From a virus (lineage: Duplodnaviria > Heunggongvirae > Uroviricota > Caudoviricetes), in the IMG/VR virus record IMGVR_UViG_2531839235_000024: 38,024 nucleotides of DNA; one strand, given 5' to 3'. Shown here in pieces: positions 2,483-8,790 of the stretch (position 1 is its first letter; every line of letters begins with the position of its first letter). A model generated the notes under the pieces. That model was not told the origin of the DNA and ran no database searches. It saw only the letters and a list, made by a program, of their open reading frames with translations. The position numbers and the translations under genes are program-made.

Positions 2483-4531
2483 TTATTCTGTTACCGCTTT
2501 TTTCACTTCCACCACAATGCTGTCAATCAGCACCGGGTAAGTTGCATTTTTTGTGATATCCGTTACGCGGAGTTTGTCCACCGGGAAAGTTCCTACTGGT
2601 GACTGCGTCAGGGTAAACGCGGCACCATCCTGACCATCAATAACCGGAATAACCTGAAGGCTGTTATTTCCTGCAAAACGGAAGGCCAGCGTATGCCATT
2701 CATTATCAAATGCACCAAAGGTTCCCAGTTTCTGGTTATTTGTTGCCACTTTTGCATTGTGGTACATCACATTCAGGTCTTTTGCGTCTGTCTGGATGTA
2801 GAACGATGCCAGCAGATTATTCCCTGCATCCCCTGTCAGGGTGACACCCTGCGGCAGAGAGGAAACCGGCCAGTAAAGCGCCATGACATACTGGTTTGCC
2901 ACCAGGTCGCCCGGTACTTTAAAACGACAACTGATTAAACCACCATTTTTCAGCAGTTCAGCACCAGTACCGGCATCATGATCCAGATACCAGGATGATT
3001 TACCTGTTTCCTTGGTCAGTTTCATTGCCTTACCACCTGTGCCTCCTGCATCACTGATAATTTCAGCTTTACCGCCAGCCGGCTCCCAGCCCTGGGCTTT
3101 CAGATTTCCTTCTGACTCACTGACACGGTAAGACAGCAGTGTTGTGGTTACTGCTTCAGTTTCTGAAGGTGACGGCACTGGTGCTTCAGTTTCAGAAGAT
3201 GGAACATCGGCTTTTACTGTGGTTCGCCCCGCATGAGTCAGAACTGCCGTGGCCAGACGGTCGGAAATAATCCCACGACGTGCCCATGAACTGAAATGGC
3301 TGGCCCGGTCCGTAGATGTCCAGGTGGCGGCACTGTTACGCCACGTTGAGCCGTAATAACCAATGGATTCAATATCCGGGTCTTCTGCCGGATTGTTGGT
3401 GGGTACATTCGCGCCATTTTCATCTGTCATTAATGGGACGAAATGAATGTTTTTATCTGTTTTATTTTTGTAGCCGTCATAGATTGCCTGGTATGCCTGT
3501 TCGTTTTTCTGTTTCCAGAAATACGTGGTATCACCACAAATCCACGGAACGCCAGCAGCACTGCCACCGGTACACTGTTCCGCCTGTTCAGCCAGGTCTG
3601 CGCGGAATTTTTCCACCATCGCCAGAAACAGCGCAGAATGCTCCGTCGGCTTCGCATCAATATCAAACTCGCCCTGCATCCACACCACAGCAAGCAGGCG
3701 GTTTTTCGGGTTCTTCGCCAGTGCCGCTTTTGTCCGGCTGATTAAGTCCTTATACAGCGGCTTATCCACACCCCAGCGGGCTGAGTCCTCTGAAGCACCC
3801 GTGCTGTCACTGTACGTGCCGTCAGCACCCGCCGTGAATGCAGAACCACCACGGCAGCAGGGAACCAGCAGAATCCCCGCATCTGCCGGAATAAACGGCA
3901 GCAGTTTTTTGGCAATGTGAAGCCCCTGACCCACGGTGCCATATTGCCCTTTAGCCACATCCGCTTTCGGGTGATTTTTTCCACTCATATCCTGCACATC
4001 ATGCAGACAGTGGTCGGCCAGAATGATGTCGTTATACTGACAGGCTTTACCTCCCGGCGTGACTGTACTGCGACGGGCTAACTGCATAATACGCGGTTCG
4101 GGGCGGTCATATGTCTCCGGCAGTGGCAGACCTTCACCGTAAGCCATACCGTTTGACTGACCAGCAAGAACCACCACGTAATACCAGGAAGGGGAGCTGG
4201 AAGCCGTTTCATTTCCTGCCGGACGGGTATGTGTTTCTGCATTATCCCAGTCTGACGGTTCAGTAGTACCGGCAACATCAGCACTTAACGGAATGACAGC
4301 ACCAATACCCGCTCCGGTAATTTCCACGTTCGGATCACCGGATACTGGCCTTACCCACAGGCAATCCTGTGTATTAAAACTGATGAGACAGTCAGCAAAT
4401 GTCATTCCTCCTTTCGTTTCAGCAGGAGGAAAGGGAGCCTCAAGAAATGCCGCTGTACCACCGGAAACTTTAACGGTAAAGTTTCCGGGCATTGATGATA
4501 GTTGAACCCATTTGGACGTCATAATATTCAT
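2483..4531 (-). CDS. Carbohydrate esterase, SASA/SGNH-hydrolase type (sialate O-acetylesterase-like, NanS-p-like) with a C-terminal lectin-like domain
   Basis: 682-aa ORF containing the esterase blocks VVLAGQSNGMAYGEG and VVWMQGEFD, a Ser/Thr/Pro/Glu-rich linker (SSETEAPVPSPSETEA) and a roughly 240-aa C-terminal domain; AGGA RBS before ATG at 4531. It has no counterpart at this position in Mu. Confidence 0.6.
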   Translation of the reverse strand: MNIMTSKWVQLSSMPGNFTVKVSGGTAAFLEAPFPPAETKGGMTFADCLISFNTQDCLWVRPVSGDPNVEITGAGIGAVIPLSADVAGTTEPSDWDNAETHTRPAGNETASSSPSWYYVVVLAGQSNGMAYGEGLPLPETYDRPEPRIMQLARRSTVTPGGKACQYNDIILADHCLHDVQDMSGKNHPKADVAKGQYGTVGQGLHIAKKLLPFIPADAGILLVPCCRGGSAFTAGADGTYSDSTGASEDSARWGVDKPLYKDLISRTKAALAKNPKNRLLAVVWMQGEFDIDAKPTEHSALFLAMVEKFRADLAEQAEQCTGGSAAGVPWICGDTTYFWKQKNEQAYQAIYDGYKNKTDKNIHFVPLMTDENGANVPTNNPAEDPDIESIGYYGSTWRNSAATWTSTDRASHFSSWARRGIISDRLATAVLTHAGRTTVKADVPSSETEAPVPSPSETEAVTTTLLSYRVSESEGNLKAQGWEPAGGKAEIISDAGGTGGKAMKLTKETGKSSWYLDHDAGTGAELLKNGGLISCRFKVPGDLVANQYVMALYWPVSSLPQGVTLTGDAGNNLLASFYIQTDAKDLNVMYHNAKVATNNQKLGTFGAFDNEWHTLAFRFAGNNSLQVIPVIDGQDGAAFTLTQSPVGTFPVDKLRVTDITKNATYPVLIDSIVVEVKKAVTE

Positions 4532-4621
4532 CCTGTTCCTGAATAAACAGAATTATCATATCCACAGACCGATAAACGCCATTTTGCGTTAATTCAGTAA
4601 AGGCCCAACAAAGGGAGCGTC

Positions 4622-5182
4622 TTATTTTTCCGAAACGCTCGCAGGATAATAACGATAAAGGGTTGAAAGGCCGATATCAAAAATAAGTGCCACCTGTCTT
4701 CGACTGACACCCCCGGCCAGTAAACGCCCGACCTGCTCGTATTGTTCCTGCGTGAGACGACGGGGTCTGCCGCCGGTTCGTCCCCTTTCACGGGCAGCTG
4801 CAAGACCAGCCCGTGTCCGTTCGACAATTAATTCACGCTCCATTTCTGCCAGCGCACCCATTATGTGAAAAAAGAAGCGCCCCATGGGGGTTGACGTATC
4901 AATGTTGTCAGTAAGACTACGAAAATTTATCCCCTGTTGCTGTAATTCATCTGTCAGCGCAACAAGGTGGCGCATACTGCGCCCCAGCCTGTCCAGTTTC
5001 CAGACCATCAGTGTGTCACCGGGTTTTAGTTTCTTCAGTGCCCGCTTCAGTCCCGGCCGCTGTGTCGTTTTACCACTCATTTTGTCTTCAAAAATCTGCT
5101 CACATCCTGCACATTCCAGCGCATTTCTTTGTAAACCGGTGTTCTGGTCATTTGTTGATACGCGTATATAGCCAATCAGCAT
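4622..5182 (-). CDS. gin: Gin/Hin/Pin-family serine DNA invertase
   Basis: 186 aa; N-terminal MLIGYIRVSTNDQNTGLQRNALECAGCEQIFEDK...TLMVWKLDRLGRS and C-terminal HTH GGRPRRLT match Mu Gin and serine invertases nearly residue for residue. Confidence 0.92.
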   Translation of the reverse strand: MLIGYIRVSTNDQNTGLQRNALECAGCEQIFEDKMSGKTTQRPGLKRALKKLKPGDTLMVWKLDRLGRSMRHLVALTDELQQQGINFRSLTDNIDTSTPMGRFFFHIMGALAEMERELIVERTRAGLAAARERGRTGGRPRRLTQEQYEQVGRLLAGGVSRRQVALIFDIGLSTLYRYYPASVSEK

Positions 5183-5236
5183 GTATTTACCTTCCTTAAA
5201 AAGAGGTGGAAAGGCCTTTTAAAGCAGATATACGGC

Positions 5237-5262
5237 ATCCCTGAAACCTCGGTTTACGGGAT
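5237..5262. repeat. gix/hix-like recombination site (ATCCCTGAAACC-TC-GGTTTACGGGAT), gin-proximal boundary of the invertible segment
   Basis: 26-bp near-perfect palindrome with a 2-bp core, half-sites ending in AAACC as in Hin/Gin crossover sites; lies 55 bp upstream of the gin ATG. Confidence 0.55.
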
Positions 5263-5607
5263 ACTGTAAACAGGGCCGCGAATGCCCTGCCATCGAACGG
5301 AACGGCTGTTGCAGCGAATAAACTCGCCACTCCAAGAAATATTAATGGTGTCCCATTTGACGGAACGCAGGATATAAATATTACATCGGGGATGACGCAG
5401 TCTGTGGCTGACTCACGTTATGTTCAAAGCATTCGAAGAGGTTCAAGGTCAACGATTGGAATGCAATATAATATTTTTGAAGTTCCTGACGGATGCGTAC
5501 TTACAGGGCTTGATGTCGCTGGTGATGGTAATGCAACGGTAACCGCATATTATCGACCTGTTCAGTTTCTGATAGATGGTTCGTGGAAAACAGCTTCCAG
5601 CGCATAA
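5251..5607 (+). CDS. Alternative tail-fibre C-terminal segment (Sv'-like; has no own start, expressed only after inversion)
   Basis: Plus-strand frame encodes GLRDTVNRAANALPSNGTAVAANKLATPRNINGVPFDGTQDINITSGMTQSVADSRYVQ..., about 80% identical to residues 178-236 of the minus-strand tail fibre and in frame with the crossover core. Confidence 0.6.
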   Translation, partial: GLRDTVNRAANALPSNGTAVAANKLATPRNINGVPFDGTQDINITSGMTQSVADSRYVQSIRRGSRSTIGMQYNIFEVPDGCVLTGLDVAGDGNATVTAYYRPVQFLIDGSWKTASSA

Positions 5608-5686
5608 AAGTGCAGTAGTTCAAAAAACAGATTATCTGAATAAATATATGATGATTTTGTCTTTTCAACAAAAACAAGGTGAAATA

Positions 5687-6208
5687 ATGGAGCTTATTAA
5701 CGTAAAACGATATTACCCGGAACACAAACCCTATGGTGAGGATGTTCAGTATTTCCAGAGTGAGGACGGAAGGGATTTTTATGAATCTATCCCGCTTTTC
5801 ACAAAGAAATACAAACTCTGTATTTCGCCTGTAACGGGTATTATCTGCTCTGTTGCTGAAGATGTCTCTGCTTTATATCCGGCAGGTTTTACTGTTGTTG
5901 AAGTGGACGAACTGCCGGAAGGTGTGAATATTGACGGTAACTGGCAGTGTTCTGATGGCCTGATATCAAAGGTGCCGGTAAACTGGAAGACGGTTGCTGA
6001 AAAGCGTCGCTCATCGCTGCTCCAGGAAGCCAACGAAACCGTGGATGACTGGAAAACAGAATTAAAACTGGACATGATTAGCGATGAAAATAAATTACAG
6101 CTGACGCGCTGGATGGCGTATATCCGACAGCTTAAAGAAATGCACTTTAATGATATTGCCAGTGAGGGGCATTACCAGGCGATTCCCTGGCCGGAAAAAC
6201 CGGAATAA
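5687..6208 (+). CDS. Tail fibre assembly chaperone (U'/Tfa-like)
   Basis: ATG at 5687 preceded by AAGGTG; 173 aa, typical size and position for the chaperone following the variable fibre segment inside the invertible region. Confidence 0.65.
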   Translation: MELINVKRYYPEHKPYGEDVQYFQSEDGRDFYESIPLFTKKYKLCISPVTGIICSVAEDVSALYPAGFTVVEVDELPEGVNIDGNWQCSDGLISKVPVNWKTVAEKRRSSLLQEANETVDDWKTELKLDMISDENKLQLTRWMAYIRQLKEMHFNDIASEGHYQAIPWPEKPE

Positions 6209-6213
6209 TTCAG

Positions 6214-6236
6214 AGGGTGCATTCAGCACCCTTTTC
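6214..6236. terminator. Stem-loop terminator between convergent U' and S (AGGGTGC-ATTCA-GCACCCT + TTTT)
   Basis: 7-bp stem followed by a T-run on the plus strand, between the U' stop (6208) and the S stop (6243). Confidence 0.5.
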
Positions 6237-6242
6237 TGTGGT

Positions 6243-7154
6243 TTACACTGAACTTACCGTTCTCCAGGCATTATTAATATAAATCTGAACCGGGCGATAA
6301 TAGACCCCACCGATATTGTCCGCAGACCGGGAGCCGGTTTCCTGCACGTTAATACCGGAAAGCATACAACCGGAAGGTGCGCTGTAATTCCATGATATTT
6401 CATTGCCTCCGGGTGAATGATAGCTCTGTGCTCCAAGCTGAACATTCTGTACATACCGGCCATCTGCGGTTGACTGCGTCATTCCTGACGTGATGTTGAT
6501 ATCCTGCGTTCCGTCAAAAGGAACGCCATTAATATTTCTTGGGGTGGCGAGTCTGTTTGCTGCCACGGCGGTTCCACCCGATGGCAGGGCATCAGCAGCC
6601 TTATTTACCGTTTCCCGTAAACCGACGTTATCGATAAAAGCGCCTTTATCCGGAATGTCTGCGCCGTTCTGCTCCCTGCGCAGGTAACGGTTATCACCTT
6701 CGCTTTTGCTGTAAACATCCAGATTATTACGGGCGGTTCCCGCATTCTCCAGGTCGGCAAGGTTCTGATCCTTCGCCAGAGCATTAACGTCACCGGGACC
6801 AAGACTGTTTTTTGTGGCAAGCGCCCCAAGACCAAGATAACCACGGGCAAGACGCTGGGCTTCCGCACCGGCATCAGCAATTTCTTTCAGGTTGTTTTTC
6901 CGGGAAAAGGCATTCGCAGCGATAATGGCTTTAATGGACAGCGTAAGCTGGTTTAACTGCGCCTTATCCGGCTGAATACTGGCTTCAGCCAGAATATTCA
7001 GCAGTTCGGCCTGGAGAATATTCAGCCAGTCCTGACCAATCCAGCTGATACCTTTTTGTCCGTCACCTTCGGTAAACCAGGTGGTGGTATTACTCTGCGC
7101 CGGTGCCAGCGCAGGCATATTCGCCACGCCGGAATTATTATCAACATGAAACAT
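6243..7154 (-). CDS. Tail fibre protein (S-like; constant N-terminal part fused to the currently expressed variable C-terminus)
   Basis: 303 aa, follows gp48 with a TAATG stop/start overlap; its C-terminal third is paralogous to the plus-strand Sv' segment; a gix-like site lies inside the coding frame at 6612-6637. Confidence 0.75.
   Translation of the reverse strand: MFHVDNNSGVANMPALAPAQSNTTTWFTEGDGQKGISWIGQDWLNILQAELLNILAEASIQPDKAQLNQLTLSIKAIIAANAFSRKNNLKEIADAGAEAQRLARGYLGLGALATKNSLGPGDVNALAKDQNLADLENAGTARNNLDVYSKSEGDNRYLRREQNGADIPDKGAFIDNVGLRETVNKAADALPSGGTAVAANRLATPRNINGVPFDGTQDINITSGMTQSTADGRYVQNVQLGAQSYHSPGGNEISWNYSAPSGCMLSGINVQETGSRSADNIGGVYYRPVQIYINNAWRTVSSV
6612..6637. repeat. Second gix/hix-like site (TTCCCGTAAACC-GA-CGTTATCGATAA) inside the tail-fibre gene, inverted relative to the site at 5237-5262
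   Basis: Inner half-site and core are the reverse complement of the inner half of the first site (11 of 12 plus core); the flanking roughly 170-bp arms (5251-5430 vs 6445-6623) are inverted repeats of about 80% identity. Confidence 0.5.
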
Positions 7155-7714
7155 TAAATAGTCTCCTCTTCATGGCTGTTTGCATACACGTAAATAAACG
7201 TCTGCCATGCAGGCTTATAACGGTTCAGAATACATTCCAGCGCACCGCCTTCATAAATACGCAGCGGCGTGAGAATATCATCCAGCACATTCATATTCCG
7301 GTAGCCGGTTTCACTGTTAATCGTGACAATACTGACCCACTGTGAATCCGGTGATGGCTGAATATCTATTTCATAACCAAACTCTGCCGCAAACCGGATA
7401 TAAAATTCACGGTTAAGAGAGGGTTTCATCCGGTATTTATTCCCGGCATAACGCTGACGCTCCTGAATTGTTGCGCCGGTCATATCACATTCCGGTAACC
7501 CCAGATAACGCTCCCAGTCTTCCAGCAGCAGACGGGATGAATCAGGAAAACGTTCTGCCAGCATCTGGTTACCGGTCCAGGAAACACGCTCCGTGGAATG
7601 ACTGAGGCCCAGGCACAAAGCCGCAAGAACGGATGACGGCCGCTTATCCCATGCCAGCCCGTCAGGCAGCAACTGCAACAGGGCACGCTGATGCGGGGTC
7701 AGGGTTACAGCCAT
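7154..7714 (-). CDS. Tail/baseplate protein, Mu gp48-like
   Basis: 186 aa, between the baseplate J-like gene and the tail fibre as in Mu; translationally coupled to S. Confidence 0.6.
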   Translation of the reverse strand: MAVTLTPHQRALLQLLPDGLAWDKRPSSVLAALCLGLSHSTERVSWTGNQMLAERFPDSSRLLLEDWERYLGLPECDMTGATIQERQRYAGNKYRMKPSLNREFYIRFAAEFGYEIDIQPSPDSQWVSIVTINSETGYRNMNVLDDILTPLRIYEGGALECILNRYKPAWQTFIYVYANSHEEETI

Positions 7715-8790
7715 GTGATTTCCCCCACGGTCAGCAACTCTGTATCTCCGGCCATCACGGACTTCAGCGGGCTGCGAACTTCAAAATCCTCCAGTCCTTT
7801 CACCCCTGCAACAGCCCGCCAGAATGATGAAGGCAATACAAGTCCACCCGGCCGCGATTCGTTATAAAGCAGGTCCGTTAATGCCTGTTTTACGGCAGCC
7901 TGATTTTCCGGCGTTTTGGGTACAATCCTGATCTCAAACGCCACCGGCTTATTGGTCAGCTTAAACACGCTGATTGTCGGCCCAAGTGGCTGACCAACGG
8001 GCTGGCCCGTCGCCGGATCATCATGACTGCGGATATAATCCGCCACCCGCTTCACATCACCTTCTCCGGGGAAAATGTCAGGGTTATTATCCTGAACAAA
8101 AGTCACACCAACACTACCCGCCTCAGGCCATTCAGGCTTACACCATGCCCGCGTCACGCCCGGTACTTCCCGTGCCCAGCGTTCAAAATCATACTGTGTT
8201 CCCCCTGATGGCGGGTTCTGTACCCGGAATACCAGCCTGGACAGCAACTCCGGCACCGTTTCCACATCCGCACCACCGGTGAGTCCCGTGCCGGTGACCG
8301 TGGCTGTCTGGTTGATGCCCGCCTGTGGCGTGATAAAGGACAGGCGGGTTCCGGTCGGGGTATTTCCAGCGCGCCCCGCACTTTCCGCCTCCACATTAAC
8401 ATTCAGTGTTCCGGCTTTTCCGGTCGCAGAGCCGGTGATGCGGTACACAACACCATCGCTTCGCTGAAGGAGTACGCCTTCCGTGATCCCTGCATCCGTG
8501 GTCAGCATCAGTTGTACCGGTCCGTCAGCGCGGGAAGCCGGTTTACGGATGACACCCCAGAATGCGCAGTGTTTCAGGAGTTCGGCTTCATCAGCTTCTG
8601 TCGGAATTATCTGCCGGGAGATCCAGGCCAGATGTTCATGCTCCTGTGCTGACAGACCCGCCAGTGCATACGCAATGGCATTCAGGGTGGTTTCATTCAC
8701 GCCCGGCTGCGAACCGGGCAGGCGCTGGCTGATATCCTGTTGTGTCTGTGTGATCAGTTGCGCCAGTGGTAAGGGCTGATAAGGCATCAT
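7705..8790 (-). CDS. Baseplate J-like protein (Mu gp47-like)
   Basis: 361 aa; size and position in the baseplate cluster. Confidence 0.7.
   Translation of the reverse strand: MMPYQPLPLAQLITQTQQDISQRLPGSQPGVNETTLNAIAYALAGLSAQEHEHLAWISRQIIPTEADEAELLKHCAFWGVIRKPASRADGPVQLMLTTDAGITEGVLLQRSDGVVYRITGSATGKAGTLNVNVEAESAGRAGNTPTGTRLSFITPQAGINQTATVTGTGLTGGADVETVPELLSRLVFRVQNPPSGGTQYDFERWAREVPGVTRAWCKPEWPEAGSVGVTFVQDNNPDIFPGEGDVKRVADYIRSHDDPATGQPVGQPLGPTISVFKLTNKPVAFEIRIVPKTPENQAAVKQALTDLLYNESRPGGLVLPSSFWRAVAGVKGLEDFEVRSPLKSVMAGDTELLTVGEITWL

Follow-up and report, generated by a model that had tools for sequence, protein, structure and literature searches.

A near-perfect 26-bp palindrome lies just upstream of a gin-like invertase gene in a 38,024-nt viral sequence (hereafter, the window), raising the question of whether it is a crossover site of a Gin/Hin-type DNA inversion system, a signal for the neighboring gene, or an incidental symmetry. 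The window is the reverse complement of an Sp18-type Mu-like prophage of Shiga-toxigenic E. coli and is 97–99% identical to Sp18 of E. coli O157:H7 Sakai over almost its full length; a 2,601-bp query (positions 4600–7200) was 100% identical to O157:H7 strain NE 1092-2. We conclude, with a probability of about 0.93, that positions 5237–5262 are the gin-proximal site (the equivalent of gixR) of a Gin/Hin-family serine invertase system, with its partner at 6612–6637 inside the tail-fibre gene S.

The 26-bp site, its partner, and the segment between them

The elements at issue, in window coordinates, are as follows:
5237–5262, no strand: ATCCCTGAAACC-TC-GGTTTACGGGAT, probable gin-proximal crossover site, equivalent to Mu gixR; outer half 5237–5248, proposed core 5249–5250, inner half 5251–5262
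6612–6637, no strand: TTCCCGTAAACC-GA-CGTTATCGATAA, probable fibre-gene crossover site, equivalent to Mu gixL; inner half 6612–6623, proposed core 6624–6625, degenerate outer half 6626–6637
5249–6625: invertible segment, ~1.375 kb between core centres, carrying S'v, a single tfa, and Sv
5245–5426: left arm of an inverted repeat, beginning at the crossover site and encoding the homologous N-terminal part of S'v
6448–6629: right arm of the inverted repeat, encoding the homologous N-terminal part of Sv
4622–5182, minus strand: gin-like serine DNA invertase, 186 aa, with Pfam Resolvase PF00239 (1.4e-51) and HTH_7 PF02796

The palindrome picked out by an earlier reading of the sequence alone (hereafter, the sequence-only reading) is real: 10 of 12 positions pair between its 12-bp arms, and a 2-bp TC core is flanked on each side by a half-site ending in AAACC. 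It had been placed 55 bp upstream of the gin start, which is correct (5237 − 5182 = 55; the ATG begins at 5182, with 54 nt between), and the claimed inverted recurrence of its inner half-site at 6612–6623 was borne out, given that TTCCCGTAAACC is identical to the reverse complement of 5251–5262 at 11 of 12 positions and is then followed by GA. GA complements TC, so the two sites are mutually inverted, as the cores had been taken to indicate, and these cores are identical and asymmetric (TC at 5249–5250, GA at 6624–6625). The proposed likeness to Hin/Gin architecture holds for 5237–5262, which consists of two imperfectly symmetric 12-bp halves around a 2-bp core, but not fully for the second site, which falls short of near-perfect symmetry and has a degenerate outer half, CGTTATCGATAA (TTATCGATAACG versus the ...AAACC consensus), that is a poor half-site match. 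The minus strand of 6612–6637 encodes F-I-D-N-V-G-L-R-E, and this site is conserved in diverged relatives with differing flanks.

Palindromy alone was not significant, with four 12-2-12 palindromes (≥10/12 complementary) in the window versus ~1.6 expected. The exact motif AAACCNNGGTTT occurs once in the window (0.04 expected); when up to two mismatches were allowed, 25 matches were found (17 expected), which makes the motif uninformative beyond the exact match and its partner. The significance of 5237–5262 therefore derives from the unique AAACCNNGGTTT, the position corresponding to Mu gixR, and the inverted partner at the end of a 182-nt repeat. This imperfect inverted repeat (5245–5426 / 6448–6629) is 79% complementary, and the crossover sites mark its outer ends. 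Two other 26-bp palindromes, both with arms complementary at 11 of 12 positions and both unlike gix sites, are present at 1535–1560 (GTCCAGATAGTT-AC-AGCTATCTGGAC) and at 4462–4487 (CGGAAACTTTAA-CG-GTAAAGTTTCCG), the latter within the esterase ORF, close to its 5' end.

Alignment to known sites, the check that had been suggested for the palindrome, was done using the phage Mu reference AF083977, in which the annotated G-segment boundaries define gixL and gixR. These boundaries fall in TTATCCAAAACC-TC-GGTTTACAGGAA (gixL) and TTCCTGTAAACC-GA-GGTTTTGGATAA (gixR). Written in the Mu orientation, the gin-side site (ATCCCGTAAACC-GA-GGTTTCAGGGAT) agrees with Mu gixR in 19 of its 26 bases and the fibre-side site (TTATCGATAACG-TC-GGTTTACGGGAA) with Mu gixL in 22 of 26; the cores do not differ. 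Aligned with Mu gixR and the adjoining 5' end of gin, the window shows zero gaps in 321 columns (mean column identity of 83% for the gin 5' region), and, because site and start codon occupy the same columns, the distance from site to gin start is identical in the two. The encoded invertase shares 76% identity with Mu Gin in a gapless 181-aa alignment, retains Ser9 and Met114, and has the Gin structures 3uj3 (2.3e-91) and 4m6f as its best PDB matches; in Sakai Sp18, the gene is annotated as DNA-invertase (ECs_4992). The locus combines a match to known sites, inverted sites with matched cores, and an adjoining serine invertase with its serine and helix-turn-helix.

The genes within and around the segment are the following:
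7705–8790, minus strand: baseplate J
7154–7714, minus strand: Mu gp48-like / YmfQ
6243–7154, minus strand: tail-fibre gene S in the window orientation, 303 aa (Sc, 6626–7154; Sv, 6243–6623)
6212–6234, plus strand: terminator-like hairpin between the 3' ends of tfa and S, from a consensus scan only
5687–6208, plus strand: tail-fibre assembly (chaperone) gene tfa, Pfam Caudo_TAP PF02413 (5.1e-18), equivalent to Mu U'
5251–5607, plus strand: silent alternative C-terminal cassette S'v, 118 codons plus stop, without its own start codon
2483–4531, minus strand: SASA/DUF6645 protein, 682 aa, sialate O-acetylesterase domain

On the minus strand, the order is baseplate J, gp48-like/YmfQ, S, invertible segment, invertase, and SASA/DUF6645 gene; S, which follows the Mu gp48-like and baseplate J genes, is annotated in Sakai as phage tail fiber (ECs_4989). 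Both an in-silico flip and natural inverted genomes show that inversion fuses S'v in frame to Sc, producing a 295-aa fibre that is annotated in the inverted genomes as an 888-nt CDS. The 303-aa and 295-aa ORFs have 177 N-terminal codons in common, and the frame is intact in the window, the flip, and the natural isomers. The crossover site is located inside a fibre ORF that has a constant N-terminus and alternative C-termini. The variable parts Sv and S'v had no Pfam match.

The gene tfa, annotated as tail fiber assembly protein, is the segment's sole PF02413 gene and points the same way as S'v, opposite to Sv; its stop codon is 34 bp from that of S. The Mu-type layout, with a co-oriented assembly gene behind each of the alternative fibre ends (S–U, S'–U'), was not found here. 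In the inverted state, the 295-aa fibre is followed by tfa in the same direction. Because the single tfa faces with S'v, the majority orientation (182 of 205 genomes, including the window) is without a co-oriented chaperone, and a single tfa leaves the biology of this orientation not fully explained.

Automated annotation of this region reflects the switch. A RefSeq 61-aa 'hypothetical protein' (5196–5381, minus strand) runs antisense over the crossover site, a RefSeq 67-aa 'tail fiber protein' (5404–5607, plus strand) is merely the tail of silent S'v, and in inverted genomes the silent cassette is labelled a pseudogene 'missing N-terminus'. These three calls are annotation artefacts of the switch, which explains the 'partial' fibre pseudogenes and the spurious 61-aa ORF across the site. 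Other variable cassettes lie between the same sites in several related loci (L012, L023, and L024–L028; fetched loci are designated by L numbers), with segments ~51 bp longer and a 298-aa fibre in L012. The module between the crossover sites is mosaic and exchangeable.

Natural inversion isomers and the position of exchange

An inverted isomer was built in silico with cuts at 5248/5249 and 6625/6626 and was searched for in 5,426 complete E. coli genomes. The window orientation was matched over ≥80% of its length in 182 genomes and the inverted construct in 23, of which 14 had ≥99% identity. Only two sites and two isomers were found. The evidence for inversion consists of differences between assemblies and is comparative. 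On this evidence, inversion in vivo appears to be conservative, with its junctions at the sites.

In five inverted loci (L001, L005, L006, L009, and L012), the gin-side junction reads ...ATCCCTGAAACC-TC-GGTTTACGGGA-A-ACGG... and the other junction ...CAGT-A-TCCCGTAAACC-GA-CGTTATCGATAA, exactly as predicted from cuts at the cores. Two pairs of diagnostic bases bound the exchange: the T/A at 5262/6612 moves with the inner DNA, whereas the C/G at 5248/6626 stays outside. This places the exchange in the 13 bp TCGGTTTACGGGA (5249–5261), an interval that is the resolution limit of sequence comparison and includes the proposed core dinucleotide; this mapping covers the examined inverted genomes whose arms carry the diagnostic bases.

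Re-inversion of natural isomers gave concordant results. When the chromosomal copy in strain 8479 (L007) was re-inverted at the cores, it had 0 differences over 2,802 bp from the copy on plasmid p8479-1 (L008). Likewise, re-inverted O157:H7 2-6-2 (L005) had 0 differences from O157 FDAARGOS_293 (L016), and re-inverted Z1323MEC0002 (L021) differed from Sakai Sp18 at 1 of 2,601 positions. An identical invertase protein, WP_000904930.1, appears in the annotation of loci in both orientations: inverted loci carry it, and so does L003, a 100% match to the window across the 2,601-bp query. Junctions elsewhere, the outcome that the sequence-only reading had named as fatal to it, are excluded by the junction mapping together with the zero-difference re-inversions, and as far as these assemblies record it, exchange of the segment is conservative and confined to 5249–5261.

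These results fix the exact boundaries of a host-range segment in a prophage carried by ~200 of the 5,426 complete E. coli genomes, many of them O157:H7 or other Shiga-toxigenic strains. Differences in orientation between assemblies at this locus are programmed and are not assembly errors.

Core alleles and competing explanations

Polymorphism in the junction regions concentrates on the core, with TC, TT, and TTC on the gin side and GA and AA on the Sc side. Sakai Sp18 has TT on the gin side and AA on the fibre side. When the inverted, TC/GA locus of FORC_044 was re-inverted and compared with Sakai (TT/AA), 5 of 5,601 positions differed, and two of these were the two core positions. The core allele combinations, read only from fetched loci, were as follows:
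TC/GA, matched: native in the window, L003, L008, L010, L015, L016, and L017; inverted in L001, L002, L005, L006, L007, L009, L011, and L012
TT/AA, matched: native in L013 and L020; inverted in L021 and L022
TC/AA, mismatched: native in L014 and L019; none seen inverted
TTC/AA, with a 1-bp insertion giving a 3-bp spacer: native in L018; none seen inverted

Six more diverged relatives were all TC/GA, and the cores were matched in 16 of 16 loci in which the Sv arm adjoins gin. Exact 63–64-nt junction queries returned approximately 77 records with TC, 26 with TT, and ~36 with TTC on the gin side and ~90 with AA on the fibre side, counts that are confounded by clonal isolate sets and by cross-aligning palindromic junctions and that are approximate because the palindromic sites let the opposite junction align at 89% coverage (63-nt queries). 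FRIK2069 appears to pair TTC with a non-AA partner (H293 versus H164). One lineage (L002, L007, L008, and L017), which occurs in both orientations, has a 1-bp insertion in the gin-side outer half-site (CCCTGAAAACC), and its S'v arm has been converted to Sv sequence for ~28 bp beside the core, which lengthens the perfect inverted repeat there.

The distribution of matched and mismatched cores fits a rule known from Cin, Gin, and Hin, under which religation requires the two crossover dinucleotides to be the same. Iida and Hiestand-Nauer, in works of 1986 and 1987 whose titles are cited by Forde et al., reportedly dealt with core matching and crossover-site conversion. Co-variation of the core bases between the two sites provides indirect support, at the level of sequence, for 5249–5250 and 6624–6625 as the functional core.

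These alleles bear on the possibility that the sites are relics, i.e., that the system is inactive in this prophage and the differences in orientation are ancient. A sizeable share of related prophages have cores that are mismatched (TC/AA) or 3 bp long (TTC/AA), which should impair inversion, and 182 of 205 genomes have one orientation. However, the window has matched TC/GA cores and an intact gin, and the identical invertase WP_000904930.1 is present on the window-identical L003 and on inverted loci. Given that two copies in one strain, as well as two O157 strains, differ solely by inversion, switching is recent, and we regard the relic explanation as very unlikely.

A tentative idea, to which we give slightly less than even odds, is that natural core alleles act as a heritable on/off setting, in which prophages with matched cores would flip and those with TC/AA or TTC would be locked, and TT/AA would have arisen from TC/GA through a mismatched intermediate ('localized conversion'). 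If true, these prophages would document, in nature and at the scale of populations, both the core-matching rule and crossover-site conversion, which to our knowledge are otherwise known mainly from in-vitro and plasmid work with Cin, Gin, and Hin. The core polymorphism also leads to a testable prediction of which lysogens still switch fibre type.

Could the palindrome instead be mainly an operator or transcription signal for gin, such as an autoregulation site or an insulating terminator? It lies within the 54-nt gap upstream of gin, where a bound invertase dimer could plausibly affect transcription of the gene. However, a promoter and terminator scan of 4500–7300, in which the totals equalled the shuffled expectation, called no sigma-70-like promoter or intrinsic terminator at the palindrome, no T-run follows it on either strand, and natural recombinant junctions map to it. 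Regulation cannot be its sole function, although a regulatory side-role is possible, and as an alternative to a crossover site this explanation is highly improbable.

Scarcely credible is inversion by RecA-dependent homologous recombination between the 182-nt repeats with an incidental palindrome, which we reject on the junction mapping: long inverted arms are present (5245–5426 / 6448–6629, 79% complementary) and their homogenization over ~28 bp beside the site in L002, L007, L008, and L017 suggests some inter-arm exchange, but the longest unbroken identities are ~20 bp or less (read from the aligned arms), exchange in the inverted loci with diagnostic bases is always in the 13 bp abutting the outer non-homologous flank and is not scattered along the arms, the core bases co-vary between sites, which homologous exchange in the arms does not predict, and an intact Gin orthologue adjoins.

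Proposed mechanism and comparison with known inversion systems

With 5237–5262 and 6612–6637 as crossover sites, the system is a Mu-type host-range switch, and its mechanism can be proposed by analogy to the biochemistry of the family. In Gin, Ser9 is the residue that links covalently to DNA. One invertase dimer would bind each site, and the site-bound dimers would come together in a synapse, probably assembled on an enhancer that is occupied by Fis and lies near the 5' end of the gin coding sequence. Ser9 would then cut four strands with a 2-nt stagger at the core, and one dimer pair would turn 180 degrees before the ends are religated. The predicted outcome is a switch of the receptor-binding end of the fibre and hence of host range. 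The change M114V renders Gin Fis-independent (PMC3575834), and residue 114 of the window invertase is the wild-type Met.

Going by position homology with Mu and Hin, a putative enhancer would lie here:
5085–5150, early in the gin coding sequence: putative recombinational enhancer with its Fis sites

In Mu, three Fis sites are located within the coding sequence of gin (PMC3378877), and the Hin enhancer is 65 bp in length and ~100 bp from hix (PMC3798978). A scan of the gin 5' region using a loose degenerate Fis motif (GNNYRNNWNNYRNNC) found no convincing pair of sites; the sole site common with Mu at the same position was GTGCAGGATGTGA[G/A]C, 144.5 bp from the core centre. Conservation at synonymous sites between gin and Mu gin showed no clear local excess that would mark an embedded enhancer. 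A half-site-like sequence at 5126–5151 (gin codons 11–19; TCTTTGTAAACC-GG-TGTTCTGGTCAT), ~110 bp from the core, is conserved in relatives, and Mu has no GTAAACC at the matching position. This sequence is probably coincidental coding sequence, though it lies where the enhancer would be expected.

Copies of the prophage were found in several genomic settings. One Mu-like copy (L008) resides on plasmid p8479-1 (166,865 bp), two others are inside Stx-converting prophage records (LC727881 and LC727895, 'region of the inserted Bacteriophage Mu-like phage'), and several genomes carry at least two copies. The plasmid, Stx-prophage, and multiple copies are consistent with active transposition.

The invertible host-specificity region of Sp18 is already in the literature (Asadulghani et al.). 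Given that this region and the ECs_4992 annotation are on record, as are equivalent 26-bp sites in other E. coli prophages, our finding reads a known system correctly. What it adds, namely precise site coordinates and the natural variation of the cores, is detail and not a new element type.

Compared to Mu, the window has 26-bp sites with the same TC/GA cores (Mu gixL, TTATCCAAAACCTCGGTTTACAGGAA; gixR, TTCCTGTAAACCGAGGTTTTGGATAA), the same order of S, invertible segment, and gin on one strand, and, in Sp18, a mom-like gene for DNA modification at the equivalent end of the prophage. The gixL-type site is located in the same frame of a homologous fibre peptide (Mu S, FIQNLGLQETVNRA; window, FIDNVGLRETVNKA; both translated by eye, the latter in agreement with the translation of window S). 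The two differ in that the segment is 1.375 kb in the window versus ~3.06 kb in Mu (AF083977 boundaries), the variable fibre parts of the window are short (~120 aa), the outer half of its gixL-type site is degenerate, and it has one tail-fibre assembly gene, whereas Mu has U and U'. The genes encoded in the Sp18 invertible region have been called distinct from those of Mu (PMC2669165). The window also has the 682-aa SASA/DUF6645 esterase gene, which looks like a cargo ('moron') gene, in the interval from gin to the mom end; in Mu, this interval contains com and mom alone.

Among the better-known enteric systems, the two 12-bp half-sites around a 2-bp crossover dinucleotide resemble those of Cin/cix, Pin/pix, Min, and Hin/hix. 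The recombinase gene is outside the segment and adjoins it in Gin, Cin, and Pin; Hin switches a promoter and hin is inside its own segment; and the Min system of p15B has six sites. The window is like Gin, Cin, and Pin, with its invertase outside and adjoining the segment and a switch of the fibre C-terminus as output, and differs from Min in having only two sites and two isomers. A 26-bp crossover consensus has been described, along with comparable sites in E. coli prophages whose cores are TC or TT (Forde et al. 2014, PMC4134206), and the Sc-side inner half TTCCCGTAAACC fits its TTCCC.TAAAC (PMC4134206). The closest parallels in that study are Phi1, Phi2, and Phi4 of EC958, in which 26-bp sites (e.g., TTATCGAATACC-TC-GGTTTACGAGAA) are located at the ends of imperfect inverted repeats; the EC958 prophage segments have TC or TT cores, and both orientations were seen in the sequence data (PMC4134206). 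The EC958 segments are 2–3 kb in size and carry mirror-image pairs of fibre and minor-fibre genes (PMC4134206), whereas the host of the window segment is a Mu-like transposable prophage and the segment carries a single tfa.
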